Below, piece after piece: positions 12,916 to 35,334 of a DNA stretch of 64,000 nucleotides. Under the pieces are notes generated by a model, which was not told the DNA's origin, did no database searches, and saw nothing but the letters and a program-made list of their open reading frames with translations. Both the position numbers and the translations under genes were made by a program. How positions within the stretch are numbered: the stretch's first letter is position 1; every line of letters starts with the position of its first letter. This DNA is from an uncultured bacterium (GTDB taxonomy: Bacteria > Zixibacteria > MSB-5A5 > GN15 > FEB-12), in NCBI GenBank assembly GCA_965372795.1, contig CBDVDR010000003.1, forward strand, positions 64,001-128,000, in the 5' to 3' direction.

Positions 12916-12924
12916 TCCATCAAT

Positions 12925-14397
12925 TTACGGTAAACGAATTATAATAACTGGGTAATTATCTTTATTATTTTCTATCACAAATTCTCCCTCATGATGATGA
13001 ATTATCTGCTCAATATAATCCCAGCCAAAAATGCTATACTGGTTTAAAGCTTTTCTGACATTTTCAGGTTCCAAAATAGCAAGATGGGGAATAATTCTGA
13101 TTTCAGAAAATCTACTATCCGGCGAACGGCATAAGTCGATTTTTATTGAATATTGAATATCCTTTTCTAAGTTGAGCAAAGCGTCCGAAGCCGAGTTTAG
13201 TAAACTAAATATCATATTCTGAAGTGATACCTCATTCATATGAACTCGACTCGGAAAATCTTTATGCACATCCAGACTAAATTCAATATTTTCAACTTCC
13301 TTCATCGACTGCCAATGTTTCAGAATGGTCTTCATCAAAACACGAATATCTATAAATGTAAAATTTGATTCTGTTTTATAAGTGTCAACTAAATGACGGG
13401 AATCATTTTTCAGATCCATGATAGTGCAGTTGACTTCTCGATTGGAACTTTCGATACCTTTGGTATCGTTATCTGAAATATCTTTTGACAAATTATCAAT
13501 ATTACTTTTGAGGATATCTATCTCGACAAAAAACTGTTTAGCCAATTCATAGGTAGATTGCTTGGTATTTAAATACCGGTCTTCAATTGCTTTAATACTT
13601 GTAAATCCCGAAATTTCTGTCAAGTCCTGTCCCATTACGAGATAGAGTAATTCGTCTCTATAGGTTGTTAAAATGGTACAGGTCAAAAACGCCGGAAATT
13701 CCTCGCCGACCCGCAAGCCGTTTACTTTACCACTCCAGGTGTTTTGCAATTCCTGCTGACAGTCTGAAAAATTGAAATGACTGAAAAGGTCATCAATTTT
13801 ATATTTTTTATCTTTATTGAGGCCAAATATCCTGATGGCTGACTTATTCATATTAAAAATGTCGCCAGATTTAGTTACGAGAAGAATTGCTGATGGTGAT
13901 TGATCAATTACCGAATCAAGAAAACAGTTGAGTTCATTCAATCTTTGATTGGTTTCCGTTAGCTCAAGATTATTCTTCTCAAGATCCATTACTCTTGATG
14001 AATCAGACTCGCGTAGCTTGTTACTTAAACTCTCTAGGACATTTATTGCAAATGAGGGTTTTTCCTTGATGATTTTTTCAAAATTACTCTTGGTTATCTC
14101 CAGAACTTCACAAGCAGTCTTGGATATGACAGATGCAAATCGTGGAGACTCTTCAACCAAGGCCATCTCGCCAATGAATTCACCGGCACTACGAGTTGCA
14201 ATTGTTACTGGCTGGTTTGTTTCTGAGCTTAATTTAGTGATTTTAACATCGCCCCTAAGGATTAATAACATGGTAGTACCAATATTACCCTCAGAAAATA
14301 TTATATCACCCGGACTGTATTTCGAGTATTTTCCGGCTAACTTAACCAGAAATAAATCAAGTGTGGAATTTTCCAACCAAGTTTCTTCATTATTCAT
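12925..14397 (-). CDS. cNMP-binding + PAS + degenerate histidine-kinase-like protein
   Basis: GEFIGEMALVEESPRFASV (cNMP), coiled coil, PAS-like IDQSPSAILL. The HATPase-like tail lacks a clear H-box and G-boxes. Confidence 0.75.
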   Translation of the reverse strand: MNNEETWLENSTLDLFLVKLAGKYSKYSPGDIIFSEGNIGTTMLLILRGDVKITKLSSETNQPVTIATRSAGEFIGEMALVEESPRFASVISKTACEVLEITKSNFEKIIKEKPSFAINVLESLSNKLRESDSSRVMDLEKNNLELTETNQRLNELNCFLDSVIDQSPSAILLVTKSGDIFNMNKSAIRIFGLNKDKKYKIDDLFSHFNFSDCQQELQNTWSGKVNGLRVGEEFPAFLTCTILTTYRDELLYLVMGQDLTEISGFTSIKAIEDRYLNTKQSTYELAKQFFVEIDILKSNIDNLSKDISDNDTKGIESSNREVNCTIMDLKNDSRHLVDTYKTESNFTFIDIRVLMKTILKHWQSMKEVENIEFSLDVHKDFPSRVHMNEVSLQNMIFSLLNSASDALLNLEKDIQYSIKIDLCRSPDSRFSEIRIIPHLAILEPENVRKALNQYSIFGWDYIEQIIHHHEGEFVIENNKDNYPVIIIRLP

Positions 14398-19794: not shown

Positions 19795-20283
19795 ATGGGT
19801 TGGTTCACAAAGATTTTTTCTGGAAGCGTTGGCACATTAGTTGAAAAAGTTGGGGGAGTGGTTGATGGTTTTCATCTAAGTGGAGAAGAAAAACAGAAAT
19901 TCAAAGTTGAGATGGAGGCTTTACTTCAAAAACGAGATTCTGAAATTGAAGAGACAATAAGAACGCAATTACAAGCAAAAGAAAGAATTCTGGTTGCTGA
20001 ATTAACTCAGGGTGACAGTTATACTAAACGTGCCCGTCCCACCGTTGTCTATGCCGGATTAGGCTTTATTTTCTATATTTATTGTTTAGTACCTGTTGTT
20101 GCGCAAATTTTTAATGCACAAATGCCTATGATGGAACTTCCCACCGCCTTTTGGGCAGGTTGGTCGGGAATTGTGGCAACCTGGAGTATAGGCCGAACCG
20201 TGGAAAAAAGAGGTGGCGGGAATCGAGTTACCAGAGCAATAACAGGCAGTCGTCTTTTTGATGATGATGCGCCCGAAGGATAA
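19795..20283 (+). CDS. Holin-like protein (3TM / gene-transfer-release holin family)
   Basis: N-terminal amphipathic helix, S.EEK, GDSYTKRARP, TM segments, GRTVEKR; AGGAGG RBS; directly upstream of an amidase. Confidence 0.75.
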   Translation: MGWFTKIFSGSVGTLVEKVGGVVDGFHLSGEEKQKFKVEMEALLQKRDSEIEETIRTQLQAKERILVAELTQGDSYTKRARPTVVYAGLGFIFYIYCLVPVVAQIFNAQMPMMELPTAFWAGWSGIVATWSIGRTVEKRGGGNRVTRAITGSRLFDDDAPEG

Positions 20284-20291
20284 ATTTTATT

Positions 20292-21119
20292 TTGATAATT
20301 AAAGATCATAAACTGGAAGGTGATAAAGTCACTTATCAAGGGTCGCCAAATTTTGGAGCCAAATTTGATAATAATGATCTGGATACAATAATAATTCATT
20401 ATACGGCAGGTTCATCGGCGGAGTCATCAGTTAGAACGTTATGTAACCCAGATTCAAAATCCTCGGCACATCTGGTAATAGGTCGGAACGGTTCAATATT
20501 TCAATTAGTACCCTTTGATACTATATCCTGGCACGCTGGCAAAAGTAGTTATTCCGGCCGTCATGGTTTCAATAAGTATTCTATTGGGATTGAAATAGAT
20601 AATGCCGGAAAATTATCACACAGCGGTGATAAGTATGTTTCCTGGTTTGGGAAGAATTATAAAGAAAATGAAGCCTTAAAAGCTATTCATAAAAATGAAA
20701 CAGAATCCGGTTATTGGCATATTTATAATGAAATCCAACTCAGCTTGGTTCAGGAAATTTGTTCGCTTCTTATAAGTAACTATGGAATTAAAAGTATTTT
20801 AGGTCATGATGAAGTCTCACCGGGGCGAAAAATAGATCCCGGTCCTGCCTTTCCAATTGATAAAATAAGAGAACATTTACTTTTTAGTGATCGCAGTAGT
20901 GATCGCCCGATTGAAGTCCCTATCAATAAAAACCAAGGAATAATTACAGCATCTAAATTGAATTGCAGATCAGAACCATATATTAGTTCCAAAATTGTTA
21001 GGGAACCTCTATCGAAAGGTGATATTGTTGAGATTCTTCATGAAAGTGATGGCTGGTATAAGATAGAATCCAAAATTTATGTCTGGGTAAAGAAGGATTA
21101 CGTCAAAACTATAAAATAG
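20292..21119 (+). CDS. N-acetylmuramoyl-L-alanine amidase (Amidase_2) with C-terminal SH3b
   Basis: IIIHYTA, SAHLVI, WHAG, SIGIEI, GHDEVSPGRKIDPG; SH3-like LNCRSEP...GWYKI. No signal peptide. Confidence 0.92.
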   Translation: MIIKDHKLEGDKVTYQGSPNFGAKFDNNDLDTIIIHYTAGSSAESSVRTLCNPDSKSSAHLVIGRNGSIFQLVPFDTISWHAGKSSYSGRHGFNKYSIGIEIDNAGKLSHSGDKYVSWFGKNYKENEALKAIHKNETESGYWHIYNEIQLSLVQEICSLLISNYGIKSILGHDEVSPGRKIDPGPAFPIDKIREHLLFSDRSSDRPIEVPINKNQGIITASKLNCRSEPYISSKIVREPLSKGDIVEILHESDGWYKIESKIYVWVKKDYVKTIK

Positions 21120-21487
21120 ATTAGTTTCGTCTAAATTGTAAAATCTAATCAAACAGGTTGTGTCTGGGAATCCCTCATTAAGATTGCAGGTGTTTACAAT
21201 TAATACAAATTCAAGAAAAATAAAGATGGCAGGATCACAACGATCTTGTCCAACTTGGAATGATCTTTAGATTAGTTAACAACAGGAAATGGGTTACTTA
21301 AAATTGATAAGGATCATTAATGGTGATGGGATAGATAGAAAGGGGCAGACGAGGTCGTCTGCCGCCCACGGAGATGGCAGGATCACAGGGATTCTGCCCA
21401 ACTTGGAATGATCTGTAAAGTCAATTATTACAAAAGATCACATCTTAAATTCAAATAACTTCATATAAAATTAGACTTCGTGATTCA

Positions 21488-21542
21488 GGAACGATTGTTC
21501 CCCGTTAGTTCATCGAAATCACAATATCTGAACGATAGTTCA
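21488..21542. promoter_or_regulatory. Two GAAC-N4-GTTC palindromes (candidate activator UAS or LexA-type boxes)
   Basis: GGAACGATTGTTCC at 21488-21501 and TGAACGATAGTTCA at 21529-21542, 41 bp apart. Confidence 0.55.
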
Positions 21543-21572
21543 TTTCCTGTTCATGTGTACCAACAACTTACC

Positions 21573-21589
21573 TTGGCACAGTTTCTGCA
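21573..21589 (+). promoter_or_regulatory. Sigma54 (-24/-12) promoter
   Basis: TTGGCACAGTTTCTGCA = TGGCAC...GG-N10-GC, upstream of an operon whose downstream neighbour is a GAFTGA activator. Confidence 0.75.
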
Positions 21590-21747
21590 TAGTTAACTGT
21601 AAATGTTAACACTAAACAAAATCAAATTATCACACAGGGAGGGTAAGGAATGGTAGAACTTTCGAAAGGGTGATTATTAAAATCGCCAATGAATGTAGGG
21701 AATAAATTTTTGAACAATAAAACAAACTAATGTGAAAGGATTTTATT

Positions 21748-22395
21748 ATGCATGATTTGGATCAGGTCTCATTGGAAATGGATGATTACGAAACAGAGTA
21801 TCTTGAAGATGATGCTGAAAATTTTGCTGATGAGTATGGTTTTGATGATGAGAGTCCCTTTGATGATGCAGAAGAGATGGAGTTAGCTTCTGAGTTGTTA
21901 TCTGTATCAAACGATGAAGAATTGGAATATTTCCTGGGTAGTCTCATCAAGCGAGTATATCGCGGTGTTAAGAAAGTTGCCAGAAGTCCAATTGTCAGAG
22001 CTATTGCAAAGGTAGCAAGACCGCTGGTCAAGAAAGCATTGCCATGGGCTGGCCGCGCAGTGGGAACCTATTTTGGTGGACCTGCCGGTGGTGCTCTTGG
22101 TGGAAGATTGGCATCGTTTGCAGCCTCTAAATTAGAAATTGATCTGACCGGACTTACTCAGGAAGAAGCAGAATTTGAAGTTGCCCGTAAGATGGTAAAA
22201 TTGATTGGTGCTGCGGCTAAGAAAGCTGCTACTATGCCTCAAACAGGATCACCCGCTGCGGTTGCATCTACTGCTATAAAATCAGCTGCTAAGAAAATCG
22301 CTCCCGGTTTAGTACAAAGTGCTCATAAAGCATTTGGATCAAGAAGCGGTCGCTGGGTTCGTCATGGACGTAAAATTATCATCCACGGAGCATAA
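21748..22395 (+). CDS. Hypothetical protein: acidic N-terminal leader + cationic amphipathic / glycine-zipper region
   Basis: Residues 1-61 have 26 D/E and no K/R. The next ~68 residues have 14 K/R, no D/E, and GGPAGGALGG. C-terminal SGRWVRHGRKIIIHGA. AAAGGA RBS. Confidence 0.85.
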   Translation: MHDLDQVSLEMDDYETEYLEDDAENFADEYGFDDESPFDDAEEMELASELLSVSNDEELEYFLGSLIKRVYRGVKKVARSPIVRAIAKVARPLVKKALPWAGRAVGTYFGGPAGGALGGRLASFAASKLEIDLTGLTQEEAEFEVARKMVKLIGAAAKKAATMPQTGSPAAVASTAIKSAAKKIAPGLVQSAHKAFGSRSGRWVRHGRKIIIHGA

Positions 22396-22406
22396 GGAAT
22401 TATCAA

Positions 22407-23756
22407 TTGATACGCAATTCTTCAAAATATCTCTTGGATCAAGAAGCTCACGCTCTTTTATCACGACTTGATAGTGTAAAGCCGTTTTCTATGCACATGC
22501 CGATGGTCATGGCGGCGGCTATATCTCCAGCGGCTATGTCGGCGATAGAAAACATGATTCAAGTTCAGGGTAAGCGATTGAGGACGATGATCAAATCTTT
22601 TATCATCTGGTTAAAATCATCAGAAGGTCAAAGATCATCTCCTCAAATAGCCCAAAAGAAATTCACACTGTTGAGATTACGCTTTGGCATTATCTTGTCG
22701 CAGTTTGATATCTTTGCGGAAGCTGTTACCCAGCGAAGTGAACATGAGTATGGAGTGAGTTTATCGGCTTTGGATGTTCTTGCCGAGGATGCTTTGAAGA
22801 TTGACGGGTTCAGTTTTGATGAACCACCGATGATTTGTTATTTGGATCGTGGTTTGGGTGCGGCAATTCGCCGCGCCCAGACTAAGTTACCGGGTGGCAC
22901 TAAAAATCCGGTTTCTATTATCCGTGTTCCGCGTGAAAGAATGATCGGATCTGCTGTTGCCAGTTCGATTGTTCATGAAGTTGGCCATCAAGCGGCAGCA
23001 ATATTGGATCTTGTACCGGCTGTTAAGAAAACTTTTTCTAAAATGGTGGCACAGGATAAACAACATGCTGATATATGGTCAGTTTATCAACGATGGACTT
23101 CAGAAATGCTTGCCGATTTTTGGAGTGTGGGAAAAGTAGGCATTACCGGTTGTTTGGGCATTATGTCTGTTGTCAGTCTGCCCCGACCATTGGTATTCCA
23201 TTTTTCCGAACGTGACGTACATCCAACCCCCTGGTTAAGAGTCAAGCTTAGCTGTGCAATGGGTAATCTATTATACCCTCATCCTCAATGGATGAAATTA
23301 GCCGGTATGTGGGAAGAATTGTTTCCATTGGATGGACTTGATTCAAAAGTACGTCTCAAAATTGAACGGTTACAACGCTTTATTCCTCAAGTTGTATCTT
23401 TGATTGGGAGCCATAAATGTAATAAATTAAATGGGAAACAATTAAAAGAAATAATGCCTGTCGAGTCCCGACAACCAGATCAGTTACTTTCCAGATTTTC
23501 AAAATGGAAAGGACAGACGCAACTGATGAACGAAGATCCTCCGACCTTAACATTTGCTGTAATTGGGCAGGCGAAATTCAACAGACTATTAAACCCGATG
23601 GATGAAAGTCCTCTTTTAGACAGCATTTTTAAGTACTGGGCGTTGAAAAGGGCAATCAATACCGGGCGAAAATGTACTATGGGAGACTTACAGACGAAAA
23701 AAATGAATAATCGTGAGTATATGTTATCTAGAAAGGAGATTAACTATGCCAATTGA
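22407..23756 (+). CDS. Hypothetical protein with HExxH zincin-like motif
   Basis: IVHEVGHQ followed by SEMLADFW (possible third Glu ligand), and HPTPWLRV. Confidence 0.75.
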   Translation: MIRNSSKYLLDQEAHALLSRLDSVKPFSMHMPMVMAAAISPAAMSAIENMIQVQGKRLRTMIKSFIIWLKSSEGQRSSPQIAQKKFTLLRLRFGIILSQFDIFAEAVTQRSEHEYGVSLSALDVLAEDALKIDGFSFDEPPMICYLDRGLGAAIRRAQTKLPGGTKNPVSIIRVPRERMIGSAVASSIVHEVGHQAAAILDLVPAVKKTFSKMVAQDKQHADIWSVYQRWTSEMLADFWSVGKVGITGCLGIMSVVSLPRPLVFHFSERDVHPTPWLRVKLSCAMGNLLYPHPQWMKLAGMWEELFPLDGLDSKVRLKIERLQRFIPQVVSLIGSHKCNKLNGKQLKEIMPVESRQPDQLLSRFSKWKGQTQLMNEDPPTLTFAVIGQAKFNRLLNPMDESPLLDSIFKYWALKRAINTGRKCTMGDLQTKKMNNREYMLSRKEINYAN

Positions 23757-25638
23757 ACTTATTTACTCGTCAGGACCATTTTTTGAAGAGGAGATCTTTG
23801 AGATTGTGATCTCAGGTCATGAAAGTGGGAATGAGTATAATATAATCGTTGAAGGACCTTCAAAAAGTTTAAAATGGGAATGGACTCAGAATTCCGGGAG
23901 ATTTGATTGGCCCAGGATTGATAGTTCCGGAAATAATACCCAGGATTTAATTGGCACTCAAATCCCAATTGCAACTTTTAAGTCAAATTATGGTGCTTAT
24001 GCACCTGCGGGTTCTTATCAGGTTACAGTCCAATTAATAGATAAAAAGGCAAGAAATAAAGCGTCTAAAATTATTGAAACTATTGTAAGCGACTTTCAGA
24101 TTCAGATTCAATTGCCACCCACGAATGTTCAACCTCCGGCACAGGCGAATGCAGCAATTGATGCCATGCAAAATATTAATTCTACATTAGAAAAGGCTGG
24201 AAGTACACGTTTGCTTCCTCCGGGGCATGAAGTCACTGAGAATTTAGCCCTATGGGGGGTGATTAAAGGATCGGTTATTGAATTTGATAAACTTGAGAAA
24301 AAGCTGCTTGAAGTAATGTGTAATGAACAAATAAATGATCATGAAAATGATCATGATAAAATTCCCGAAAAAATTACTTCAAAACGCCAGTCGTTAAAAG
24401 ATATTAATTTAGCTAAAAATTTAAGCAATAATAAAGATCGAACCAATAAAGATATTTATTGGGATGCGAATTCTTATGAAACATTAAAAAATCAAACCGA
24501 TATTTTTCTGCTTGAAGAAGTTGGTTCCGAATGGGATGTTAAAAAAATAGCTGAAGTAATTCAAAAGAAGCTCAAGAAATATATTGACCATCCATCAGTC
24601 ATTTCGGAATCAAAAATCCAGGAATGGATTGAAAATTATAAGTGTGAAAACCTTGATTGCTATGTATTTCCATATCTTTGTGACATCAAAGAAGTCAAAG
24701 ATATGCCTGAGCCGGATGAATCAAACTGTAAGGGGGTTTTACAACAAAGAATGTGTCATCCCTTATTAGTTGAGCTAATCTGGTGTTATTGGCATGAAGA
24801 ATCAATGCTTTCTCAGGCAATGAAAGCAATCAACTTGCGTTTTCAAAATAAACGTATGAAAAAGGGTCCTGATGCGCTTAGTGCTCTGAATACAAATCCT
24901 TTAAGAAAGTTAAGCAATCTTCTCTGGGGTCATATTCAAGAAGAACAAAAACGCTTAACAGTAAAAAGGAGAGCATACGAGTATGACCATCATTATGGTA
25001 TAACATTGCATGGTGATGCGGTTGGAACATTTATGCCGGCCGATAGTCGTACCAGATTTCTTGAATCATTTCATCGCTTACTTCATCTTTGTACTAACTT
25101 TTACAAAGAATTTGATGATATGACAATTCAGGCTGACGGATTTCCAATTAAAAGCGCCTTGCGTGAAGTTCACATGAATCTCGCCGAAGGTGCTCATAAT
25201 CAATATGGTGATATGCCCTGGATTGCAAAAAGAGAAATGCTAATTGAACAATTTATACTTTCCCGTCCGGAAATGAGAGAATTTTTGGGTGGCAGAGTGA
25301 TGGTTCCTTATAAAGAAGGATGGATGGAAGCAGTTGACACTATGAAACGTTTACAGGGGTGGACTGATACCAGTGTCGAACAATTTGCCTCACTGGGACG
25401 CCTTGGTGAACAAATTATACTTTCAATTCGATATGGAAACTGGAATGCAGAAGGAATTAATGCTGATCATGCTTACCAATGGGCAGCCTTTTGGAGAGAT
25501 GAAATTCAGGATTATATCCACTCTTACCGGTCTGTGTCAGGTGTTGATTTAACTGAACCAAGTCAGGTGGATGGAACTCAACCATCGGTCCATCTAAAAA
25601 CCAGATTAGATGCCCAACAAAAGAAAGTTGCCGGTTAA
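23746..25638 (+). CDS. Hypothetical protein (variable N-terminus, W/H/Y-rich C-terminal domain)
   Basis: Long ORF; ATG 23746 follows AAAGGAG. C-terminal ~290 aa contain ELIWCYWHEE, RRAYEYDHHYG, EGAHNQYGD. Confidence 0.8.
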   Translation: MPIELIYSSGPFFEEEIFEIVISGHESGNEYNIIVEGPSKSLKWEWTQNSGRFDWPRIDSSGNNTQDLIGTQIPIATFKSNYGAYAPAGSYQVTVQLIDKKARNKASKIIETIVSDFQIQIQLPPTNVQPPAQANAAIDAMQNINSTLEKAGSTRLLPPGHEVTENLALWGVIKGSVIEFDKLEKKLLEVMCNEQINDHENDHDKIPEKITSKRQSLKDINLAKNLSNNKDRTNKDIYWDANSYETLKNQTDIFLLEEVGSEWDVKKIAEVIQKKLKKYIDHPSVISESKIQEWIENYKCENLDCYVFPYLCDIKEVKDMPEPDESNCKGVLQQRMCHPLLVELIWCYWHEESMLSQAMKAINLRFQNKRMKKGPDALSALNTNPLRKLSNLLWGHIQEEQKRLTVKRRAYEYDHHYGITLHGDAVGTFMPADSRTRFLESFHRLLHLCTNFYKEFDDMTIQADGFPIKSALREVHMNLAEGAHNQYGDMPWIAKREMLIEQFILSRPEMREFLGGRVMVPYKEGWMEAVDTMKRLQGWTDTSVEQFASLGRLGEQIILSIRYGNWNAEGINADHAYQWAAFWRDEIQDYIHSYRSVSGVDLTEPSQVDGTQPSVHLKTRLDAQQKKVAG

Positions 25639-25655
25639 AAGGAATAAGAAAATAG

Positions 25656-26762
25656 ATGCTGGATTTTACTTCGGCTCTTTATCTGGGAATGAAGCACCCG
25701 AGCTGGTCTCTGCCATCATGGGACCAGCTTACTTTGGGTGTTCCGGGAATTCTTTATGAGCCGCCAATTGTAACCAAATTATCTGGTGAACTATCAAGAC
25801 TAATTGGTTGTAGATGCGCAACTTTTGCACCCTCAACCTTACATCTCTTTTGGGATTTGTTTAACTCGCTCCGAGCCTACAATGTAAAAATATTTTATGA
25901 TTCCGGAATTTACAATATTGCACGGTGGGGAATAGAGCGGGCTGAATATAAAGGTATTAAAGCCTTTCAATTTTCGCATCATGATCTGTTCTCTCTGCGA
26001 CTATTGCTTCAGGAACAAATTAGTGGAAGGTGCAAGCCGATAATAGTTTGTGATGGTGTTTGTCCGACCTGCGGAGATTATGCTCCCCTTAATGATTATT
26101 ATGAAATCATTCGGGATTTTGGAGGACAATTGATAATTGATGATACCCAGGCATTGGGAATTTTGGGGAAATCTCCTTCGGGAAGTAATCCTTTTGGACA
26201 CGGAGGGGGTGGCAGTTTGCAATATCATAATATCGGAGGACCGGAAATTGTTGTAATCGGATCTTTGGCAAAAGGTTTTGGTGTACCGGCGGCTGTGATG
26301 GCATCAGGAAAAAAAATGATGAAAAATTTTAAAAATAAAAGTAAAACCAATATTAGCTGCAGTCCGGCATCATTGGCGGATTACAGCGCAATTTCACGAG
26401 CCTTGATATTGAATAAAAATTGCGGTGAAAAACTCAGAACAAAACTTTTAAGAAATATCATCTTCTTCAATACTATTATAAATAAAAATTCAAACCTGTC
26501 TGATAATATATTTCCAATTCAATCCATCAATTTTCAAAATAATAACATGGCTTATGATACGTTTTTACAACTTAAGCAATCAGGAATAACAACTGTTTTG
26601 AGTGAAAATGAATTTAAAAATCCCTGTATCAAATTATTAATTACATCATCGCATACTCAAAAAGAGTTATATAAAACAGCTTCAATAATAAATAAAATTA
26701 TGAATCGAAATTCTTACCATTTTCAAAGTAGCGGAGGGTTGTATGGCAGTGTGTCGATGTAA
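25656..26762 (+). CDS. PLP-dependent alpha-oxoamine synthase family (BioF/KBL/SPT-like), divergent
   Basis: LDFTSALYLG, FSHHD, IIDDTQALG (canonical DEAH), GSLAKGFG (PLP-binding lysine). Confidence 0.8.
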   Translation: MLDFTSALYLGMKHPSWSLPSWDQLTLGVPGILYEPPIVTKLSGELSRLIGCRCATFAPSTLHLFWDLFNSLRAYNVKIFYDSGIYNIARWGIERAEYKGIKAFQFSHHDLFSLRLLLQEQISGRCKPIIVCDGVCPTCGDYAPLNDYYEIIRDFGGQLIIDDTQALGILGKSPSGSNPFGHGGGGSLQYHNIGGPEIVVIGSLAKGFGVPAAVMASGKKMMKNFKNKSKTNISCSPASLADYSAISRALILNKNCGEKLRTKLLRNIIFFNTIINKNSNLSDNIFPIQSINFQNNNMAYDTFLQLKQSGITTVLSENEFKNPCIKLLITSSHTQKELYKTASIINKIMNRNSYHFQSSGGLYGSVSM

Positions 26763-27969
26763 TAAAAGACAAAATGAATTTTTAGATGATGAGTGGATTG
26801 GAAGTTATAACCTGGAGCAATATAATATTCTGAATAAACAACAAATAGATCCGGAAATATTGTTATCTGAAAATGAGTTTACCGAAACGGAGATGTCCAA
26901 TGAATCAGAAGATGAATTAGAAAATGAATTTGCAATTACAAATGAGATATCATCAACTCGCAACCGTACTTATGTGAAATGGGTTCAACATTCTCTAAAT
27001 AAAATATTGGGCATAAGACTTGGGGTCGATGGCATTTATGGAAGAAATACAAAACAAGCATTAAAATATTTTCAAACATTTGCAGGTATTTCTGTTGACG
27101 GGATTGTTGGCTCTCAAACAGAAAAAGCACTTACTGAATATAGTACTATAAAAAAGCCAGTTGCTATATCTTCATCCCGTTCACATCAAGTTGATTCAGT
27201 TCGTTGGTGTCCTGTAAAAAGTAAAAGAGCAACTTTGAAATGCACATCTCCCGGAACAAAAAAATGTCCAGCTATATCAAAATTATTATGTGTACCTCAT
27301 ATCAATCAAATCCCACTTGAGTATGTCTCAGGAGTAGGGGTTGATCGCAAAACAGGTTTGCAGGTTATTACTCGCAGAACAACAAGGACAAATTTCAAAA
27401 TGACGTCCGGTGTATATAAAGGATTGGCTGGATTTGTGATATATATGAAGAAATTTGGAATACCGGTTGAAGCAATACTATCTCAAGGGGCGCATCTTTG
27501 CCGCTGTGTCGGTAGAACTAACAGATTATCACAACACTCATATGGCAATGCGTTTGATTTTGCCGGAGTCAGATGGGCACTGATAAACAAACCTCCCAGT
27601 CGTTTAAGGGAAACAATCGTTCATAATTATTGGAATATAGAGCAACGCGGGCTGCTCAGGAGGATAAATGCATGCCTCCGTTTAAACTTCAGTCTGGTTC
27701 TTGATTATAATTATAACTCCGATCATTTTTCTCATTTTCATGTCGAGGCGGGGAGTGGTATGAACCCCCGAAGCAGGAGTACGATCCTATTTGTTCAAGA
27801 GGCGCTTGGACATATTCTTCAACGAGATATATCTGTTAATGGGAGGATGGATGCTTATACCCAGCAGGCGATAATTGATTATTCCGGGAATGATGAAAGT
27901 GTAATTTCCAACAGCACTGAATTAAATAGTATTTTCAAAAACTTGTTTTCAGAAATTGCTGCCGGATAG
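26743..27969 (+). CDS. Peptidoglycan-binding + extensin-like (LAS/M15-type) peptidase protein with acidic leader
   Basis: WVQHSLN..VDGIYG..T..A...FQ..VDGIVG (PG_binding_1); CR..LSQHSYGNAFDF and HFSHFH; second PG-binding-like segment at the C-terminus. Confidence 0.8.
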   Translation: MAVCRCNKRQNEFLDDEWIGSYNLEQYNILNKQQIDPEILLSENEFTETEMSNESEDELENEFAITNEISSTRNRTYVKWVQHSLNKILGIRLGVDGIYGRNTKQALKYFQTFAGISVDGIVGSQTEKALTEYSTIKKPVAISSSRSHQVDSVRWCPVKSKRATLKCTSPGTKKCPAISKLLCVPHINQIPLEYVSGVGVDRKTGLQVITRRTTRTNFKMTSGVYKGLAGFVIYMKKFGIPVEAILSQGAHLCRCVGRTNRLSQHSYGNAFDFAGVRWALINKPPSRLRETIVHNYWNIEQRGLLRRINACLRLNFSLVLDYNYNSDHFSHFHVEAGSGMNPRSRSTILFVQEALGHILQRDISVNGRMDAYTQQAIIDYSGNDESVISNSTELNSIFKNLFSEIAAG

Positions 27970-27994
27970 AAACAATATTTATGAATGACTCAGC

Positions 27995-28759
27995 ATGATA
28001 AATTTAAATAAAAATTCAAAAAATATCCCAGTCATAGATTCTCATTGTCATTTTGGATCTGGTGAAGGCTTAACCCACCATTGGAACACAAGGGCAAATT
28101 TAAGCAAGTATAAACCCAGAGCAAGAGCTGCCGGAATAATTCGCACTGTTTTATTCCCGGTTATTACTACCGATTGTTTAAAAGCAAACAGAGAAGTTGG
28201 TCTGTTTATTAAAAAAAATCCAAATAAGTATTTTGGTTTTGCTATGATTCATCCCGTCATTGATAAAAATAGAGTGTTCAAAATGATTGAAGAATCGGTT
28301 GTGAAATTTGGTTTTTGTGGAATTAAAGTTCATCGCCATAGCGGTAGTATTACCAGAGAAATCTGTGAAGTTGCTCAATATTTTTCGATACCAATATTAT
28401 ATGATGTGATGGATGATGCCGGGTCGATTGAATTTTTTGCAAATGAATATCCGGAGGTGAATTTTATTATACCTCATCTAAGTTCTTTTGGAAATAATTG
28501 GAAAGCTCAAAAAAGTTTTATTCCATATCTGACAGAATACCCTAATGTGTTTACTGATTCTTCAGGTGTTCAATGGTTTGATTTGTTGAAGGAAGCTTTT
28601 GAAAAAGCTGGTGCTGAAAAAATACTTTTTGGTTCGGACGGTCCCTGGCTACACCCTGCTGTTGAACTTTCGAAAATAATGTTGTTAACAACAAATCGGG
28701 AAATGTTATATTTAATGTTAATTCAAAATATTCTCAGACTTACAAATCAAAAACTATAA
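27995..28759 (+). CDS. Amidohydrolase family protein (Amidohydro_2)
   Basis: IDSHCH, GIKVH, PHL, DSS, KILFGSDGP. Confidence 0.88.
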   Translation: MINLNKNSKNIPVIDSHCHFGSGEGLTHHWNTRANLSKYKPRARAAGIIRTVLFPVITTDCLKANREVGLFIKKNPNKYFGFAMIHPVIDKNRVFKMIEESVVKFGFCGIKVHRHSGSITREICEVAQYFSIPILYDVMDDAGSIEFFANEYPEVNFIIPHLSSFGNNWKAQKSFIPYLTEYPNVFTDSSGVQWFDLLKEAFEKAGAEKILFGSDGPWLHPAVELSKIMLLTTNREMLYLMLIQNILRLTNQKL

Positions 28760-28797
28760 TAATTTATTCTTTGTAAAAAAAATATTGCTTCAAAATT

Positions 28798-30240
28798 TTA
28801 ACTAATAATATTTTTTAGGGTTTCATATTTTTTTTCAAGCTGTTGTGCCCATCGTTTTGAGCACTGCAGTTGATTGGCCGCATCCGAAAGTATTTTTTCC
28901 TTTTTAATCTGATTTCCATTTTGTTTTTTAAGTACATCATTTATTACAATTTGCAAAGCCATCTCTCTGATTTTTTCAATTATAAGTGTCAGTCCATTAC
29001 CGCTAAATAGTGCCCGTCTTAAAGAGGATTCCAAATCTCTATCGGGCCAAAGGATATCCTCTTCTGAATCACTTAGAAAATCCTCTTCAGGGATACAACC
29101 AATTGATAGAAGGGTTCTGTCACTTGCAAGATGAGCAATTTTGAGAACCAGATGTTTTAATTCTCTAACATTTCCGGGATAATTTCTGTTATATAAAAAA
29201 TCCATCACATGTTGATCTAAAACAAACGCCGTAGATTTATTATTGAACTGATTTAGAAAATGCTCTACTAGCAATAAAATATCATCTCTCCGTTCACTTA
29301 GAGAAGGTAATTTGAATAACCAGTTTGTGATGCGAAAATATAAATCGCTTCGAAAATTCCCCTGAGCAACATCCTTTTTGATATCTCTATTAGTTGCACT
29401 AATTAATCTAAATTTGGTTTTTCTCCAAACACTTGAACCGACTCTTTGATATGTTCCCTCCTGCATTACGCGTAATAGTTGAGACTGCAACGTCAGCGGT
29501 AAATCACCTATTTCATCTAAAAATAGGGTGCCTCCATTAGCAATTTCAAAAGCACCTTTTCTTGAGTTTACAGCTCCTGTAAAAGCTCCTCTTTCATGTC
29601 CAAAAAATTCACTGCCAGAAAGTTCGGGGACAATAGTGGTGCAGTCTAAAATTACATATTTACCTTTATTTTGTTTGGGATCCAAATCGTGAATTAGATT
29701 GGCAATTACTTCTTTTCCTGTCCCGCTTTCGCCGGTTATCAAGATCGAATCCAGAGTAAAATAAGCAACCTCTACAACTTTTCTAATTACATTTTTCCAT
29801 AGTTTATTATTACCAATAACGGCATTTTTTGAACAAGAAATTTTTAAAAGCTCTTCAACTTTTGACCAGCGTTTTATTCTATAAAATATCTCATCTGGTG
29901 TAATAGATTCTGATTCCCAGGATAAAAAATCTACCGATCCGGCACGAACAACTTTTTTTGCAAACTGATAATTTTGTTTATTATCCTTCAGCCCTATAAC
30001 CAGTACGCTTGAGTATATTTGCAAACTGCTAATAGTGGTGAATAATTCGTCATTTAGATCATCACAAAATAAAACATTTAAACAGTTATCACTTACAGTT
30101 AATTGTTTTGTAGATTCAATCTCTTCCAAACCAAATTTAAGGAATTTGTTACGAACAATATTTTCAATCAAACTATTTGGTTTACAAAAAAAATGAAGTT
30201 TGATGATAAATAAATTATTATATGAAAACAATAAACACAT
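28798..30240 (-). CDS. Sigma54-dependent transcriptional activator (bEBP) with degenerate receiver-like N-terminus
   Basis: [41 protein letters not shown]; atypical C-terminal HTH. Confidence 0.92.
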
Positions 30241-30893: not shown

Positions 30894-33596
30894 ATGTACA
30901 AAAAAATGTTTCTTGTATTGTTTTTTGTGGTGATTCTTGCTATGTCGGTAATTGCCGATAAAGACACCAAACAATCATGGGCGGCATCACCGTGCGCCAC
31001 TTGTCAAATTGATATCCCCGAAGTAACAACTATTCATGACCAGTTAGGATATGGAATTATGTCCGACCACATCGTAACTGGTAGTTCCAGCGGGATATTT
31101 GCATCTTATGTCGATGTTTCATTTAGAATTCCAGATACAGATGCATCAGTCACCATTAATTTCCGGGAAGTGTACTTATTTGATGCAACTTATACTGTAA
31201 GTCAAGAATCAGTTGATGGATATGATTGGTTTCATATCCATATTACATCACATGCTCGAATATATGACGATACACCAATATTCAGATTTCAGGTTGTTAA
31301 AATGGGTTGTGTAGCTGAAACGCATGATCTTCCAATTGAGCTCGCACAATCTTCTTTTGGGCAAAACCAATTTGGTGTCTCCGGTGATACATACACAATT
31401 GGTATTAAAAACAATGGAGCTCAAAAGATTGAAGAACCTAATGTATATGTCCATGTAATTCCGGATGGTGAAGACTGGACTTATATATATGAGAGTTATG
31501 TCGGTGCCATAGTAAGTGTGCCTGTTTATTTCCAATGTAATCTTGATTACCCGGGTGGATTTGAAGTAACAGTCTCTCATAATACTAATTTAATTTTTGA
31601 TTCATGGACCCCCTCCTATTACTCCTACAATGCAACTGTAGATGCATCAGTAGAGGGTGAAGTGACATTCACTATGGGTCCAAATTCACTTAGCGTGACC
31701 GAGCCGGATTTTCCTGATACTAGATTTTTAACAATTGATTTTAAAATTGACGATGATGTAACCCCAGGCTCGGAGTTTTATTTAGGAATAGTTGAAGACT
31801 ACAGGTTTACTACTTGTGACGATTATGAATATTTCGATCATTATGATCAGGATGTTGTTAGGGTAAATACAGCACTTGAAGAGATTACTGTTAAGTTGCA
31901 AAGTATGGCAGTATATAATGATGATATGGGTTTTGCGTGGGGTGTATCAATCAATACGCCGGTTCCTATTAAAACTGATGCTCCTGATGAGGAGTATAAT
32001 ACAAGATTCTCAGTGAACGAATCAGATTTTGAACATACTGAATTCAAACATGTTACTCCGACTTATTCATTTTCAGGTGGTGTAATAAACTGGATTGGGA
32101 TGCATTCGTTTGGAGCCTACAAAGGAATGGGTGAAGATCCAAATCAAGCGTCGAATGTGATTTCTCCGACTGACTATACTTTTGAATATATTGGCAGTAT
32201 GAATCTTGATCCGGTATCAAATGGAACGGATTATATTGATTTTAATACATCAGATCCTGGCTACAATTATACAAAGGTAAAATATACAGATCATATAATT
32301 GATCAAACAAATGGATTGAGCTTTGATGACGGTTATATAACTGTTAGAAGCCATTGTACAAACTGCGGTGGTGGTGGTGGTTGTCCAACGCTATATATAT
32401 GGGATGGTTTAGGTTATGCTCTTGAGAATCCGATTTTAACCTATTCTCAGTATCAGGTAGATCCTATAGCTCAGGACGATTATTATCAGCTGTCAAATAT
32501 TGTTGAAAAAGACGGTTATTATAATATTCAGATTCGTGAGTATCGTGATGAGATAACATTCCTTGATCAAGCTGAGCTAATTGTTGCCAATTATCCCCTT
32601 GATTCGGATATTGGAATTAGTACTGAGGGAATGATTTATGCTAAGAAAGAGCCAATTGAACCAATCGCAGCATTTGATGAATGGAATAACGATTTATTGC
32701 CGTTAGTTTCAAAAATGGATGGTTCCTTGTTTGAAGCTGATGAACCGGGTTCATTGATTTTGACCTATCCAAATCCAAATTATGGAAAGCAGATGAGTCA
32801 AAATAAAGGTTATGCTTTAGGTAATACACCTCCTACACCAAAAGCAAAGAAATTCGTCGATTCAGATTTCAAGATTTATGGAGAAAATGTATATTCCGAA
32901 ATAGAGGATATCAACGGTAATTGGCATTATCTTGGCGGTACTGCACCGCGTTCATATGAAACTCAGACAACAAGTTGGCTTGCTGATGCTGATGATTATG
33001 ATCTGGGTGAGACATTCCGGATTAGAATTTCCTGGCAAATTGGTTATAAAGTTGATCAGCAAGCACTTGCGGTTACTGAGCCGGCGAATGTTACCCAACA
33101 TCGCTTGATGCCAATTGAAGCAGATCATACCCGGGTTGGAAAGATTGCAAACAGTTTGAATTCAACCGATGGGGATATTATCACACTTTCACCGGGTGAA
33201 ACCATTGATCTGAAATTTGAAGTTCCGGAAACCTCAAATATTGAAGGTTATGGACAGAAGTTCTTTTTCAAAGCAAATGGTTACTATCGTGCTTTCAAAT
33301 TTGAAGATGGCGTACCGGATAGTTTTGAACTGTTTGATAATTATCCGAACCCATTTAATCCGATAACCAATATAAGATTCTCGGTACCAAAGACAGGCGA
33401 AATATCGCTTGCAGTCTTTAATCTTTTAGGGCAGAAAGTAAAAACTTTGCATGAAGGAGAGATTGATGCCGGTAATCACACTATTCAATGGTCTGGCGAC
33501 AATGATAATAATCAGCAGGTCGCAAGTGGTGTATATTTCTATAAACTAATTACAAAGGATTTTGAGCAGAGTAAGAAGATGGTTCTCTTAAAGTAG
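30894..33596 (+). CDS. Large secreted protein with cohesin-like region and C-terminal FlgD/T9SS-like sorting domain
   Basis: Signal peptide; VSVPVY..GFEVTV cohesin-like strand pattern; GGGGGCPTLYIWDG; NYPNPFNP...VFNLLGQKV...ASGVYFYKL...KKMVLLK. Confidence 0.8.
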   Translation: MYKKMFLVLFFVVILAMSVIADKDTKQSWAASPCATCQIDIPEVTTIHDQLGYGIMSDHIVTGSSSGIFASYVDVSFRIPDTDASVTINFREVYLFDATYTVSQESVDGYDWFHIHITSHARIYDDTPIFRFQVVKMGCVAETHDLPIELAQSSFGQNQFGVSGDTYTIGIKNNGAQKIEEPNVYVHVIPDGEDWTYIYESYVGAIVSVPVYFQCNLDYPGGFEVTVSHNTNLIFDSWTPSYYSYNATVDASVEGEVTFTMGPNSLSVTEPDFPDTRFLTIDFKIDDDVTPGSEFYLGIVEDYRFTTCDDYEYFDHYDQDVVRVNTALEEITVKLQSMAVYNDDMGFAWGVSINTPVPIKTDAPDEEYNTRFSVNESDFEHTEFKHVTPTYSFSGGVINWIGMHSFGAYKGMGEDPNQASNVISPTDYTFEYIGSMNLDPVSNGTDYIDFNTSDPGYNYTKVKYTDHIIDQTNGLSFDDGYITVRSHCTNCGGGGGCPTLYIWDGLGYALENPILTYSQYQVDPIAQDDYYQLSNIVEKDGYYNIQIREYRDEITFLDQAELIVANYPLDSDIGISTEGMIYAKKEPIEPIAAFDEWNNDLLPLVSKMDGSLFEADEPGSLILTYPNPNYGKQMSQNKGYALGNTPPTPKAKKFVDSDFKIYGENVYSEIEDINGNWHYLGGTAPRSYETQTTSWLADADDYDLGETFRIRISWQIGYKVDQQALAVTEPANVTQHRLMPIEADHTRVGKIANSLNSTDGDIITLSPGETIDLKFEVPETSNIEGYGQKFFFKANGYYRAFKFEDGVPDSFELFDNYPNPFNPITNIRFSVPKTGEISLAVFNLLGQKVKTLHEGEIDAGNHTIQWSGDNDNNQQVASGVYFYKLITKDFEQSKKMVLLK

Positions 33597-33610
33597 GACC
33601 TTTTAATATT

Positions 33611-33642
33611 ACAGTAGTAGGAGTTAATACTCCTGCTACTGT
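33611..33642 (+). terminator. Hairpin (terminator or transcript-stabilising) after the 900 aa gene
   Basis: ACAGTAGTAGGAGT-TAAT-ACTCCTGCTACTGT. Confidence 0.6.
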
Positions 33643-33681
33643 TAAAATTATGAGTAACGATAAAATTTTATTGGGATAGTT

Positions 33682-35334
33682 ATGCAGATAGAAAGATTCA
33701 TCGATAGTAAAAAATTAAAATTAACAGTTTTATTTCTAACTGTATTATTTTTAATGCCGTTAACATTTACAAATGCCGGATCACTTGTGAGTCGTGATGA
33801 TTTTATTGTGTTTGATACTTCACTTAGAGTATCTCTTGAAAATTATACGTGGTTATGTAGTTCCATAGATAGTTCAGGTAATATATATCAGAGCAATGCC
33901 GTTGATGTCGATTCGTCGATATATAGTTATTTTTATGGGCAGTTCAATAATTTTGATTCGTATGGAAACCAATTACAACAGGTTACTAATTATCTTCCTT
34001 ATGATAAGATTGACACCAATTGGTCAGTTCAGGGGCGTTATTTTTGCCATACCAATGATAATTTATTAACATGTTTAATTGGAAAACAAAAACCTAATTT
34101 GGATATTGAATATTCTCAAGCCTTTGTTTATTTGCTCGATAAGAATGGAAATAATTTTATAGAGCCTCAATGTTTGGACTGTGATTTACCTACTTTGGCA
34201 GAAGGTCATTACCATGCAGTTCCTTATGGGGGTATGAATAATAATAATGTCTTTGGAGCAGCCTGGAGATTGTATGTTTATCCTCCGAATTATTATGAAT
34301 CGATAAATGTCCGATTGTACTATCCCGATAGTGACAGTTTATCTCCGATAATTGATCCAAAGCAATTAGTTCAACCTATAATCGGTATCCCTGGGTATGA
34401 AGATGATGATTATATGACTTATCAAAGTCCCGATATGAAAGTAGCCGATGATGGAAGCTTTGCAGTTGCCTGGATGCCGAATCATAACACTCGTGAAAAG
34501 TTTATTTATTATGTTGTTTATAATGCTGACTATACTCAGAAGTCTGAAGTGATGATTGCAAACTGTAAAAGTGGTATACCGTATGAACCTGAGTATTTGC
34601 ATAGAATAAGAATGTGTATGGAAGCTGATGGAGATTTTTATATATCCTGGTTGGCTGAACAGGCTACACCGACAATTTCTAACAGGAGTCATGTATGGAT
34701 GCGCGGTTTCAATAGTGATGGAACTCCAAAATATGATCCGATTAGAGTGAATGATTGTGATTCCTTGTGGTTAACAATGTTTGATGAGATTCAGTCCTAT
34801 ATCGTTTGTGATGATAGTGGTAATGTAGTTGTTTCCTGGGCTGATAGTCGAGATTTCCCTTATGATGAGCATGGCAAACCACGTAATGTTTATATCCAGA
34901 AGATTAATAAAGATGGTGATCTGGTTGGTTTAAACCAGAGGATTAATAATGTTAATGGTTCAGCGATTGGTGGAGATGCTGCAAATTGTGCCATCAATAA
35001 TTCGGGACAAGTTATGATTAGTTGGCGTAATAATGCAGAAGTATTTCCACGATTATGTGGTCAATTGATGCCATTTGATAGTATAGGGAATTTCGTGTCT
35101 GGTGATATAAATTATGATATGACGGCTGGTATTTCAGATATTACAACATTTGTTGATTACCTTTTTCTTGGCAGCAGCATCTCTTTTTGGCCAAGAGGGC
35201 TGGTTGATTTTAACGGTGATGATACTCATGGGAATATTTCCGACTTAACTTATCTGATATCGTATTTTTTTCAGAATGGGTTATCACCTGTGATACCTGA
35301 AACAGGTATTAGAGCAAACCCTGGAAAATTTTAG
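33682..35334 (+). CDS. Secreted beta-rich protein with C-terminal dockerin-like duplicated motif
   Basis: Signal peptide; repeated DG.F..(A/S)W blades; GDINYD..ISDIT.FVDYLF and DFNGD..NISDLTYLISYFF. Confidence 0.75.
   Translation: MQIERFIDSKKLKLTVLFLTVLFLMPLTFTNAGSLVSRDDFIVFDTSLRVSLENYTWLCSSIDSSGNIYQSNAVDVDSSIYSYFYGQFNNFDSYGNQLQQVTNYLPYDKIDTNWSVQGRYFCHTNDNLLTCLIGKQKPNLDIEYSQAFVYLLDKNGNNFIEPQCLDCDLPTLAEGHYHAVPYGGMNNNNVFGAAWRLYVYPPNYYESINVRLYYPDSDSLSPIIDPKQLVQPIIGIPGYEDDDYMTYQSPDMKVADDGSFAVAWMPNHNTREKFIYYVVYNADYTQKSEVMIANCKSGIPYEPEYLHRIRMCMEADGDFYISWLAEQATPTISNRSHVWMRGFNSDGTPKYDPIRVNDCDSLWLTMFDEIQSYIVCDDSGNVVVSWADSRDFPYDEHGKPRNVYIQKINKDGDLVGLNQRINNVNGSAIGGDAANCAINNSGQVMISWRNNAEVFPRLCGQLMPFDSIGNFVSGDINYDMTAGISDITTFVDYLFLGSSISFWPRGLVDFNGDDTHGNISDLTYLISYFFQNGLSPVIPETGIRANPGKF

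Follow-up and report, generated by a model that had tools for sequence, protein, structure and literature searches.

The sigma-54-controlled island and its genes

We analyzed a window of 64,000 nucleotides (nt), positions 64,001 to 128,000 of contig CBDVDR010000003.1 from an uncultured bacterium of the Zixibacteria (GCA_965372795.1). The subject of this work is an island at positions 21489–30240 of the window, consisting of six genes of the same orientation (designated g1 to g6) and a convergent gene for a sigma-54 activator (Table 1). It was proposed in an earlier note, made from the sequence alone, which described a near-consensus sigma-54 promoter leading six tightly packed or overlapping genes and, at the far end, a convergent bacterial enhancer-binding protein (bEBP) with an intact GAFTGA motif. 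All these elements are present. The promoter TGGCAC-N5-CTGCA (21574–21589) precedes six same-strand open reading frames (ORFs), the first of which starts about 160 nt 3' of it; the spacers between g1–g6 are 11, 17 and 25 nt long and the overlaps comprise 44 and 20 nt. The convergent activator ORF, which ends 38 nt past g6, combines a Sigma54_activat domain with an AAA lid and the GAFTGA motif. It should be mentioned that ORFs at the window and at related loci were called mechanically and that the start codons of the variable genes (referred to as cargo) are uncertain.

The note had also assigned to the six genes an acidic/cationic protein (g1), an HExxH protein (g2), an unknown protein of about 630 amino acids (aa) (g3), a divergent alpha-oxoamine synthase dependent on pyridoxal phosphate (PLP) (g4), a peptidoglycan-binding protein with a LAS-type peptidase domain (g5) and an amidohydrolase (g6), all of them without a Sec signal peptide. 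These assignments proved correct wherever they could be checked. None of g1–g6 contains a hydrophobic N-terminal or transmembrane-grade segment according to a crude Kyte-Doolittle hydropathy scan, no dedicated signal-peptide predictor having been run. No family match at all was obtained for g1, g2 and g3 in the four libraries Pfam, NCBIfam, PHROGs and PADLOC. Sheath, tube, baseplate or shell families were found neither in the window island (Pfam and PHROGs scans) nor among the gene clusters common to 80 related loci, and the island encodes no membrane translocon, ATPase or shell-like protein.

Table 1. Features of the island in the window
Feature	Position	Strand	Basis or remark
Distal activator-site candidate, GAA-N6-TTC palindrome GAACGATTGTTC	21489–21500		Paired-palindrome comparison with related loci
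Proximal activator-site candidate, GAA-N6-TTC palindrome GAACGATAGTTC	21530–21541		44 nt upstream of the -24 element
Sigma-54 promoter, TGGCAC-N5-CTGCA	21574–21589	+	Position conserved in related loci
g1, 215 aa, acidic leader and cationic glycine-zipper-like body	21748–22395	+	No family match
g2, 449 aa, orphan zincin-like protein, HEVGHQ and downstream E-x3-D	22407–23756	+	No family match
g3, 641 aa (630 aa in the public gene call), variable beta-rich N-terminus and all-alpha C-terminal domain	23713–25638	+	No recognised fold relative
g4, 368 aa, divergent alpha-oxoamine-synthase-like PLP enzyme	25656–26762	+	Aminotran_1_2 match
g5, 408 aa, cargo, acidic N-terminus, PG_binding_1 and Extensin-like_C / LAS-type peptidase domain	26743–27969	+	Pfam
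g6, 254 aa, Amidohydro_2 metal hydrolase	27995–28759	+	Pfam
Sigma-54 activator, 480-aa ORF, receiver-like N-domain, AAA+ with GAFTGA and C-terminal helix-turn-helix	28798–30240	-	Sigma54_activat

Distribution and synteny

Relatives of g3 were revealed in the genomes of 553 species (one genome per species was scanned). The best 80 of these 553 loci were examined with nine window proteins, namely the seven proteins of the island and the holin and amidase encoded upstream of it; synteny was counted only where there was enough flanking DNA. The earlier note had made its proposal depend on the homologues being syntenic in other genomes, and the order g1-g2-g3 was indeed retained in 69–70 of the 70 loci: g1 was found upstream of g3 in all 70, and g2 was adjacent to g3 in 69, the exception (L041) being rearranged. 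The convergent activator was located at the island end in 53 of 54 loci. Of 54 loci, 48 have g6, usually directly ahead of the activator, and 42 have g4 downstream of g3. Greedy ORF clustering of the 80 loci, which suffered from contamination by antisense ORFs of GC-rich genomes, revealed no further conserved flank genes.

The g2, g3 and activator proteins show correlated pairwise distances (r ~0.82, 58 loci), which fits the inheritance of the island as one unit; host relatedness also contributes to this correlation. In the phylum of the window, g3 was found in one of 285 genomes and in one of 198 high-quality genomes, both times only in the window's own genome. Four megaplasmids or chromids carry g3, and the window copies are about equally distant (40–60% identity) from those of many phyla. 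Because of this rarity within the phylum, the carriage on megaplasmids or chromids and the even distance to many phyla, we conclude that the island is foreign (horizontally acquired) in the genome of the window and mobile in general. The same core is found in monoderm and diderm hosts. None of 50,697 phage records matched the island, which says little either way.

No published description of the island was found in full-text literature searches, which included passages of PMC7159879, PMC3162934, PMC9640686 and PMC12316311; the existence of one is not thereby disproved. The statement of the earlier note that the module corresponds to no named pathway is supported. Names for the island genes were likewise absent from the sigma-54 transcriptome papers on Paraburkholderia phymatum (supplements apart; the plasmid record carries no annotation). 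The island is thus found in hundreds of bacterial species and has apparently never been described.

The core proteins g1, g2 and g3

The g1 protein of the window has a net charge of -26 in residues 1–60 and of +22 afterwards. Its family is conserved end to end. The proteins open with an MHDxDRT-like start followed by an acidic aromatic-rich region; the middle part contains a helix-like motif ELxxELLxV...ELxxFLG and then a stretch rich in Lys/Arg and Gly, while the C-terminal part comprises a second acidic motif and the sequence G-W-x-R-x-G-x-x-I-x-L, represented in the window by a conserved motif of the G-W-R-G-I-L type. A profile search among 1.84 billion representatives revealed 2613 clusters at E ≤ 0.001, including 1294 at E ≤ 1e-30. 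The family properties were determined on single-unit proteins, of which there were 62 among the best 150; the FLG-type motif was present in 60, and these 60 were used. Charge segregation was observed in 58 of them (medians -23 and +14), a zipper pattern of the small-xxx-small type in all 60, and the C-terminal motif in 58. No similarity of g1 to the holin families of Pfam and PHROGs was detected, and profiles of g1, g2 and g3 gave nothing meaningful when compared with the sequences of the Protein Data Bank (PDB).

Relatives of g1 often consist of two to four units fused in one reading frame, and the genes are present in one to three copies. In the head-to-tail fusions (L025:4062-7106, L064:2112-3554 and many profile matches) the later units still start with Met-His-Asp-x-Asp-Arg-Thr. 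It looks as if tandem genes had lost the stop codons between them, or as if the units were processed at their boundaries. Two Streptomyces loci have g1-like proteins with a VanY domain placed between the N- and C-modules of g1.

In g2 the motif HEVGHQ and the residues E233 and D237 (HExxH and E-x3-D) are invariant in 18 of 18 aligned proteins. At least 4386 relatives (clusters at 90% identity) were found at E ≤ 1e-20; none of them has a Pfam domain and all source names are 'hypothetical' or 'uncharacterized'. The window protein had no Pfam match even at E 10, none of the 18 members matched Pfam, and no match was found among PDB sequences. The neighbours of g2 in the protein atlas are unnamed clusters, and the nearest named ones, U49 and M48, score only 0.77.

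Among 8000 candidates scored, 612 relatives of g3 were detected at E ≤ 0.001, and every source name is 'hypothetical protein'. The N-terminus is variable, with Ig-like or carboxypeptidase-regulatory-like Pfam domains in four of the 120 relatives listed, and the C-terminal domain contains dozens of invariant residues; g3 has many invariant His, Glu and Asp residues. A usable structure model was obtained for residues 170–641 (120 sequences); it is all-helical, with a predicted local distance difference test (pLDDT) score of 87.5 and a predicted template modelling (pTM) score of 0.89. The full-length model, built from 14 sequences, had a pLDDT of 41 and was unusable. Foldseek found no match to the model of residues 170–641 at E ≤ 1e-3 in the PDB or BFVD, and the best Z of VIA-align, 4.8 among 48,161 chains, is noise, as is the Z of 3.4 to PspA. 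The protein atlas also contained no usable named match to the C-terminal domain. A di-metal site in g3 was considered, given paired invariant ExxH motifs and ferritin-like di-iron proteins among the weak fold matches, and was dropped; the model coordinates were not inspected.

The enzymes g4 and g6

The g4 protein matches PF00155 (Aminotran_1_2) above its cut-off, and its PLP lysine, Lys206, is invariant in 15 of 15 sequences. It also matches the bioF, Kbl and serine palmitoyltransferase models, and all 11 NCBIfam matches lie far below their cut-offs (e.g., 68.5 vs 426 bits for bioF). By these cut-offs g4 is not a member of a named equivalog (BioF, Kbl, SPT, CqsA, ALAS). At the position where BioF has DDAH, g4 carries an island-specific DDTQ motif. 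In g6, a match to Amidohydro_2, the D-x-H-x-H motif and further His/Asp residues are invariant. Since their catalytic residues are kept, g4 and g6 are both probably active enzymes.

The earlier note had named ordinary biotin synthesis as an outcome that would overturn its proposal, and g4 does match the models of bioF, Kbl and serine palmitoyltransferase. Still, ordinary biotin, amino-acid or lipid metabolism around g4 was rejected and can be regarded as effectively refuted: the scores fall short of every curated cut-off, the DDTQ proteins form a distinct subfamily embedded in the island, no other biotin gene was found in the island with Pfam and NCBIfam, and g4 is dispensable in 12 of 54 loci.

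The variable slot and the acidic leaders

Between g3/g4 and g6 the loci contain a variable slot, which is occupied by g5 in the window. In total 94 ORFs were extracted from this slot and 57 of them were scanned with Pfam; 39 of the 57 had any match. PG_binding_1 was found in 17 ORFs. Wall-hydrolase domains were found in 11 ORFs (four Amidase_2, two VanY, two M74, one M23, one CHAP and one Extensin-like_C), Peptidase_M20 in eight, trypsin-like domains in four and Phospholipase D (PLD) in one. OmpA-like domains were found in several proteins of the slot, and the hints of HNH, GIY-YIG, M35 and glucosaminidase domains are weak and below cut-off.

Many cargo proteins open with an acidic-aromatic motif of the approximate form M-x3-F-x-F-E-a-E-P-F-E (about FxFEaEPFE), which matches no family searched. 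When the 80 loci and the window were searched in all six frames with a leader model built from 12 such starts, 19 ORFs matched at E < 0.2, 12 of the 19 being its own seeds, so that the model is partly circular and the independent matches number seven. All 19 ORFs are located within islands, 3' of g3, and none outside. Of the 19 leader-bearing cargo proteins, 11 have a strongly cationic stretch rich in Arg and Pro between the acidic leader and the wall-binding and hydrolase domains. The expectation of the earlier note, to be checked by profile searches and neighbourhood analysis, that a recurrent core would be accompanied by variable acidic-leader cargo across phyla agrees with these data: the core recurs, the cargo changes and the leaders are present.

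In g5 itself, PG_binding_1 covers residues 77–130 and Extensin-like_C residues 236–336. The latter domain keeps the motifs H-x6-D and H-x-H, which we take to be the LAS signature. The first 80 residues have a net charge of -11, and the catalytic half (residues 152–408) shares 38% identity with the cargo protein from an island of Streptomyces.

The promoter, the activator and its candidate sites

Taken alone, the sigma-54 motif of the window is not significant: two matches with at most one mismatch were found in the window vs 0.86 expected, and 21 of 100 shuffles reach two. That the promoter is real follows from the comparison with related loci, not from the motif alone. In 30 of 72 related loci the 450 nt preceding the first g1 homologue contain the strict pattern (background 0.008 per 450 nt), and a relaxed promoter with a preceding palindrome was found in 43 of 70 loci (background 0.03 per 4.5 kb). 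Among the loci with a strict promoter (n = 31), 21 have two GAA-N6-TTC palindromes and 25 have at least one (background 0.066 per 170 nt). The palindromes of the window, at 21489 and 21530, are spaced 41 bp apart, close to the spacing of ~42 bp usual in the family. This spacing and the distance of the proximal site (~44–68 nt) recur in loci of Proteobacteria, Acidobacteria, Planctomycetes, Chloroflexi and Streptomyces, and the general arrangement of promoter and palindrome was also seen in Verrucomicrobia. Because the same arrangement recurs across those phyla, the activator, its candidate sites and the promoter must have travelled together. The leader of 160 nt between the promoter and g1 contains a seven-codon ORF with a Shine-Dalgarno-like sequence (21651–21674).

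The activator matches PF00158 with an E value of 1.3e-57. The island activators form one orthologous group, and all 16 aligned members, Streptomyces included, keep GAFTGA unchanged. The best model matches are AAA+ cores of the RtcR, PspF and NifA type, all below curated cut-offs. The N-domain is receiver-like and the position of the expected acceptor Asp is not conserved; translation of the window gene probably begins downstream of its first ATG. No conserved sensor kinase near the activator emerged when the 80 loci were clustered. Since there is neither a conserved acceptor nor a nearby sensor kinase, a ligand or a partner protein is a more likely trigger than phosphorylation. By inference, the dedicated activator would bind the two GAA-N6-TTC palindromes and open the promoter of g1–g3, the optional g4, the cargo and g6. 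The conserved promoter, the paired palindromes and the island's own activator support the idea of the earlier note that the module is inducible and self-regulated.

Island-borne sigma-54 genes

The genome of the window has a sigma-54 gene on another contig. A sigma-54 gene was found inside or beside the island in six of the 80 loci, all from Actinobacteria or Chloroflexi (L047, L059, L056, L022, L075 and L076). The hosts are two Streptomyces species, Rhizocola and three Chloroflexi; in the two Streptomyces species and Rhizocola a Sigma54_DBD match lies within the fetched locus. A fourth actinobacterial locus is on a short contig with less than 2 kb upstream of the island and was kept outside this judgement.

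The clearest example is Streptomyces nymphaeiformis (L047:3385-4728), with a complete sigma-54 of 447 aa containing the activator-interacting, core-binding and DNA-binding domains. The gene ends 150 nt ahead of g1 and is adjoined by a consensus promoter, conserved activator sites and an activator with GAFTGA. The Streptomyces loci retain the consensus promoter, both palindromes and GAFTGA. Judging from this gene content, the island depends on sigma-54 so strictly that it brings its own sigma-54 gene where the host has none, in Actinobacteria and Chloroflexi.

According to passages of the published literature, Actinobacteria are without a sigma-54 system (PMC3162934), no sigma-54 has been reported from streptomycetes, with none in 205 genomes (PMC9640686), and sigma-54 occurs in only four of 173 Actinomycetota, so that the phylum is effectively without it (PMC12316311). 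The island-borne genes of Streptomyces and Rhizocola contradict these passages of PMC9640686 and PMC12316311.

Neighbouring genes in the window

Directly upstream of the island there is a holin gene (19795–20283, GTA_holin_3TM, 162 aa), adjoined by an endolysin-like gene with Amidase_2 and SH3_3 domains. A GC-rich hairpin (21344–21363) separates this pair from the island. The pair (19795–21119) was considered as a conserved part of the island and rejected, no holin homologue being found in the 80 loci. In the phylum the holin is present in four of 285 genomes, and the other three have no island. Because of these three genomes we consider the pair to be separate from the island: it is either a sporadic lysis module that adjoins it by chance, or the two share an insertion hotspot.

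The region directly downstream of the activator (30894–35334) encodes large secreted proteins whose C-terminal sorting domains are those of type IX secretion. These proteins are not conserved with the island and indicate that the host is of the Fibrobacteres-Chlorobi-Bacteroidetes (FCB) kind. Further downstream (35717–39832) a protein of 1371 aa combines a Ser/Thr protein kinase with TPR, GAF, sigma-54 activator AAA+ and HTH_8 domains, an unusual fused kinase-activator. On the minus strand (8511–14397) a 1351-aa protein with adenylate/guanylate cyclase, AAA_16 (STAND-like) and TPR domains adjoins a cNMP-binding and PAS protein; the two may form a cyclic-nucleotide signalling pair.

Possible function of the island

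The explanation that we tentatively prefer is that the island is a tightly gated envelope-attack or lysis module. The promoter would be silent until the activator is triggered. The cell would then make g1, a predicted polycationic glycine-zipper protein kept harmless by its strongly acidic leader, together with cell-wall hydrolases without export signals, many of which have a similar acidic leader and then an Arg/Pro-rich cationic stretch. Inside the producer the leaders would mask the cationic, membrane-seeking parts. Their removal by the zincin-like g2 would allow the unmasked g1 to perturb the membrane, so that the hydrolases could reach the peptidoglycan. The producer would lyse and release the lytic cocktail, and neighbouring cells may be hit too. 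As for g3, g4 and g6, our guess is that they protect the cell itself or contribute a step, enzymatic or signalling, that is linked to the switch.

Several observations weigh against a lysis module. The g1 protein has no transmembrane-grade segment (maximal 19-residue hydropathy 0.84) and so is not a classical holin, and the holin/amidase pair next to the island is not part of the conserved unit. That g2 is a zincin-like protease, as well as what its activity and substrates may be, is inferred from motifs only. The cargo of the window itself, g5, was not matched by the leader model despite its acidic N-terminus. Plain autolysis would need neither three deeply conserved orphans or enzymes (g3, g4 and g6) nor polymorphic cargo, and the PLD, trypsin-like and weak nuclease-like cargo points to antagonism or another conflict role over simple self-lysis. 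Finally, no immunity genes were identified in the island.

The polymorphism of the cargo, resembling that of interbacterial toxin systems, would be accounted for by the reading of the earlier note, a non-Sec route of export or packaging: g2 and/or g3 would recognise the acidic motif as a sorting signal and pass the leader-tagged hydrolases and g1 to the outside or into a particle, and competitors would be hit while the producer stays intact. An N-terminal motif common to otherwise unrelated cargo is a hallmark of a trafficking signal; moreover, the g1 modules can hold an inserted enzyme, the Arg/Pro-rich cationic stretches could aid the crossing of the target outer membrane, and the variable N-terminus of g3, Ig-like or carboxypeptidase-regulatory-like in the few relatives mentioned above, would suit this role. 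We nevertheless consider this route unlikely, as the island has no conserved membrane protein, ATPase, secretin, shell or tube protein, the same core serves monoderm and diderm hosts, and the g3 model is unlike known transport or capsid folds. It is equally possible that the acidic leaders are pro-pieces which mask the cationic segments, and that lysis of the producer brings about the release. A precursor of ribosomal origin is another way to read g1: it would be a large bacteriocin-like precursor with a leader directing its modification by g3, g4 and g6 and its cleavage by g2, with the hydrolases as accessories. Conservation along all 215 residues, unlike the hypervariable core peptides of such pathways, speaks against it, as do the lack of a transporter or a known modification enzyme family among the island proteins (Pfam, NCBIfam) and the loss of g4 in 12 and of g6 in six of 54 loci. 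These facts make the precursor pathway quite improbable in spite of the leader, which resembles acidic leader peptides in style, a weak Pfam match of one g1 relative to the type-A lantibiotic leader region (E 1.2e-4), the one to three gene copies and two to four fused units, the catalytic residues retained in g4 and g6 and the many invariant His, Glu and Asp residues of g3.

Two other explanations start from the activator. Its best matches are to RtcR-type regulators, including PADLOC RtcR_PspF2 (E 2.7e-81), and it could sense infection in an abortive-infection suicide module that lyses the cell ahead of phage maturation. Sigma-54 gives very low basal expression, and the patchy, horizontally mobile distribution and the envelope-destroying output are in line with such a role. 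The RtcR match, however, comes from the AAA+ core only, the N-domain being receiver-like with no evident CARF; PADLOC was silent on g1–g6 and both neighbouring lysis proteins (nine proteins scanned), defence that depends on transcription may be slow, and suicide needs no diverse cargo, all of which leaves this explanation improbable. The PspF-like models (TIGR02974, E 1.7e-61) match the activator too. In the PspA/PspF system an amphipathic effector is encoded beside its activator, an arrangement that the island recalls. The island could then serve the wall of its own host, either in peptidoglycan remodelling or recycling, where the M20 peptidases (8 of the 57 scanned variable ORFs) might process muropeptides together with the amidohydrolase, or in a Psp-like response with g1 protecting the membrane. 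Such a role is very improbable: an island that 284 of the 285 genomes in the phylum lack, and that is patchy elsewhere, does not suit housekeeping, the hydrolases are without export signals, the PLD and trypsin cargo does not fit, and the similarity of the g3 model to PspA (Z 3.4) is at noise level.

A broader proposal, which builds on the leaders and is possible although doubtful, is that the island represents a portable, self-sufficient delivery system. It would comprise a private sigma-54 cassette, able even to introduce its own sigma factor into phyla that have none, and a new N-terminal signal on 'artilysin-like' exolysins and g1 carriers. These would be handled by the g2 zincin and by g3 with its new fold, and would be activated or exported depending on their leader, with no need for Sec, Tat or any known secretion apparatus.

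Whatever the mechanism, three large protein families are left without a name or a curated family, and g3 also without a recognisable fold. As g1-g2-g3 form the invariant core of an island distributed across at least 10 phyla, something common in bacterial biology still awaits an explanation. If the proposed mechanism is true, the island would be a natural source of outer-membrane-crossing lysins and of membrane-active proteins masked by pro-pieces, as well as of a very tight, transplantable expression switch. It offers a testable case for regulated self-lysis or leader-dependent release outside known secretion systems.

Comparison with known systems

The island fails a defining feature of each of its nearest analogues, as it has no holin, secretion apparatus, transporter or immunity pair. 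Its likeness to holin-endolysin cassettes and to holin-dependent ('type 10') secretion lies in the signal-less peptidoglycan hydrolases (amidase, LAS/VanY-type, M23 and CHAP) encoded beside a small protein predicted to be membrane-active, and in the expected outcome, a breach of the wall and the release of cytoplasmic proteins. In the window the signal-less hydrolase is g5 with its PG_binding_1 and LAS-type domains, and varied hydrolases take its place elsewhere. In contrast to these cassettes, g1 has no transmembrane helices or holin similarity, no phage record was matched, and the island adds three orphan proteins, two enzymes, a private sigma-54 switch and acidic leaders on the cargo. Lysis-dependent release of the colicin/pyocin type likewise shows tight all-or-none expression, probable sacrifice of the producer, mobile patchy spread and polymorphic killing domains. 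The island differs in being controlled by sigma-54 and an activator rather than by the SOS response, in payloads that are mainly wall hydrolases, and in having no lysis lipoprotein, receptor-binding or translocation domains or identified immunity gene.

Precursors with an anionic pro-piece or a double-glycine leader also balance an acidic segment against a cationic one, form multi-unit precursors and have a dedicated protease, for which g2 is the candidate here; on the other hand, g1 has ~215 aa and is conserved throughout, the island encodes no ABC/peptidase transporter, and cleavage of g1 is putative. Polymorphic toxins with MIX or LXG trafficking domains resemble the cargo in that unrelated enzymatic domains with a common short N-terminal element occupy a variable slot by a conserved core. 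The differences are that the island lacks secretion apparatus genes, that the motif about FxFEaEPFE matches no searched family and that no cognate immunity genes were found. In engineered Artilysins an endolysin is joined to a polycationic peptide, and 11 of the 19 leader-bearing cargo proteins similarly place a cationic Arg/Pro-rich stretch before the wall domains; the cargo of the island is natural and bears an additional acidic mask, and its crossing of the outer membrane is putative.

With the PspF/PspA and RtcR regulons the island shares a dedicated AAA+ activator encoded beside a single target operon. It differs from both in activator scores below the cut-offs, in a receiver-like N-domain without the conserved Asp, in targets unrelated to theirs and in the possession, in some phyla, of its own sigma-54 gene.

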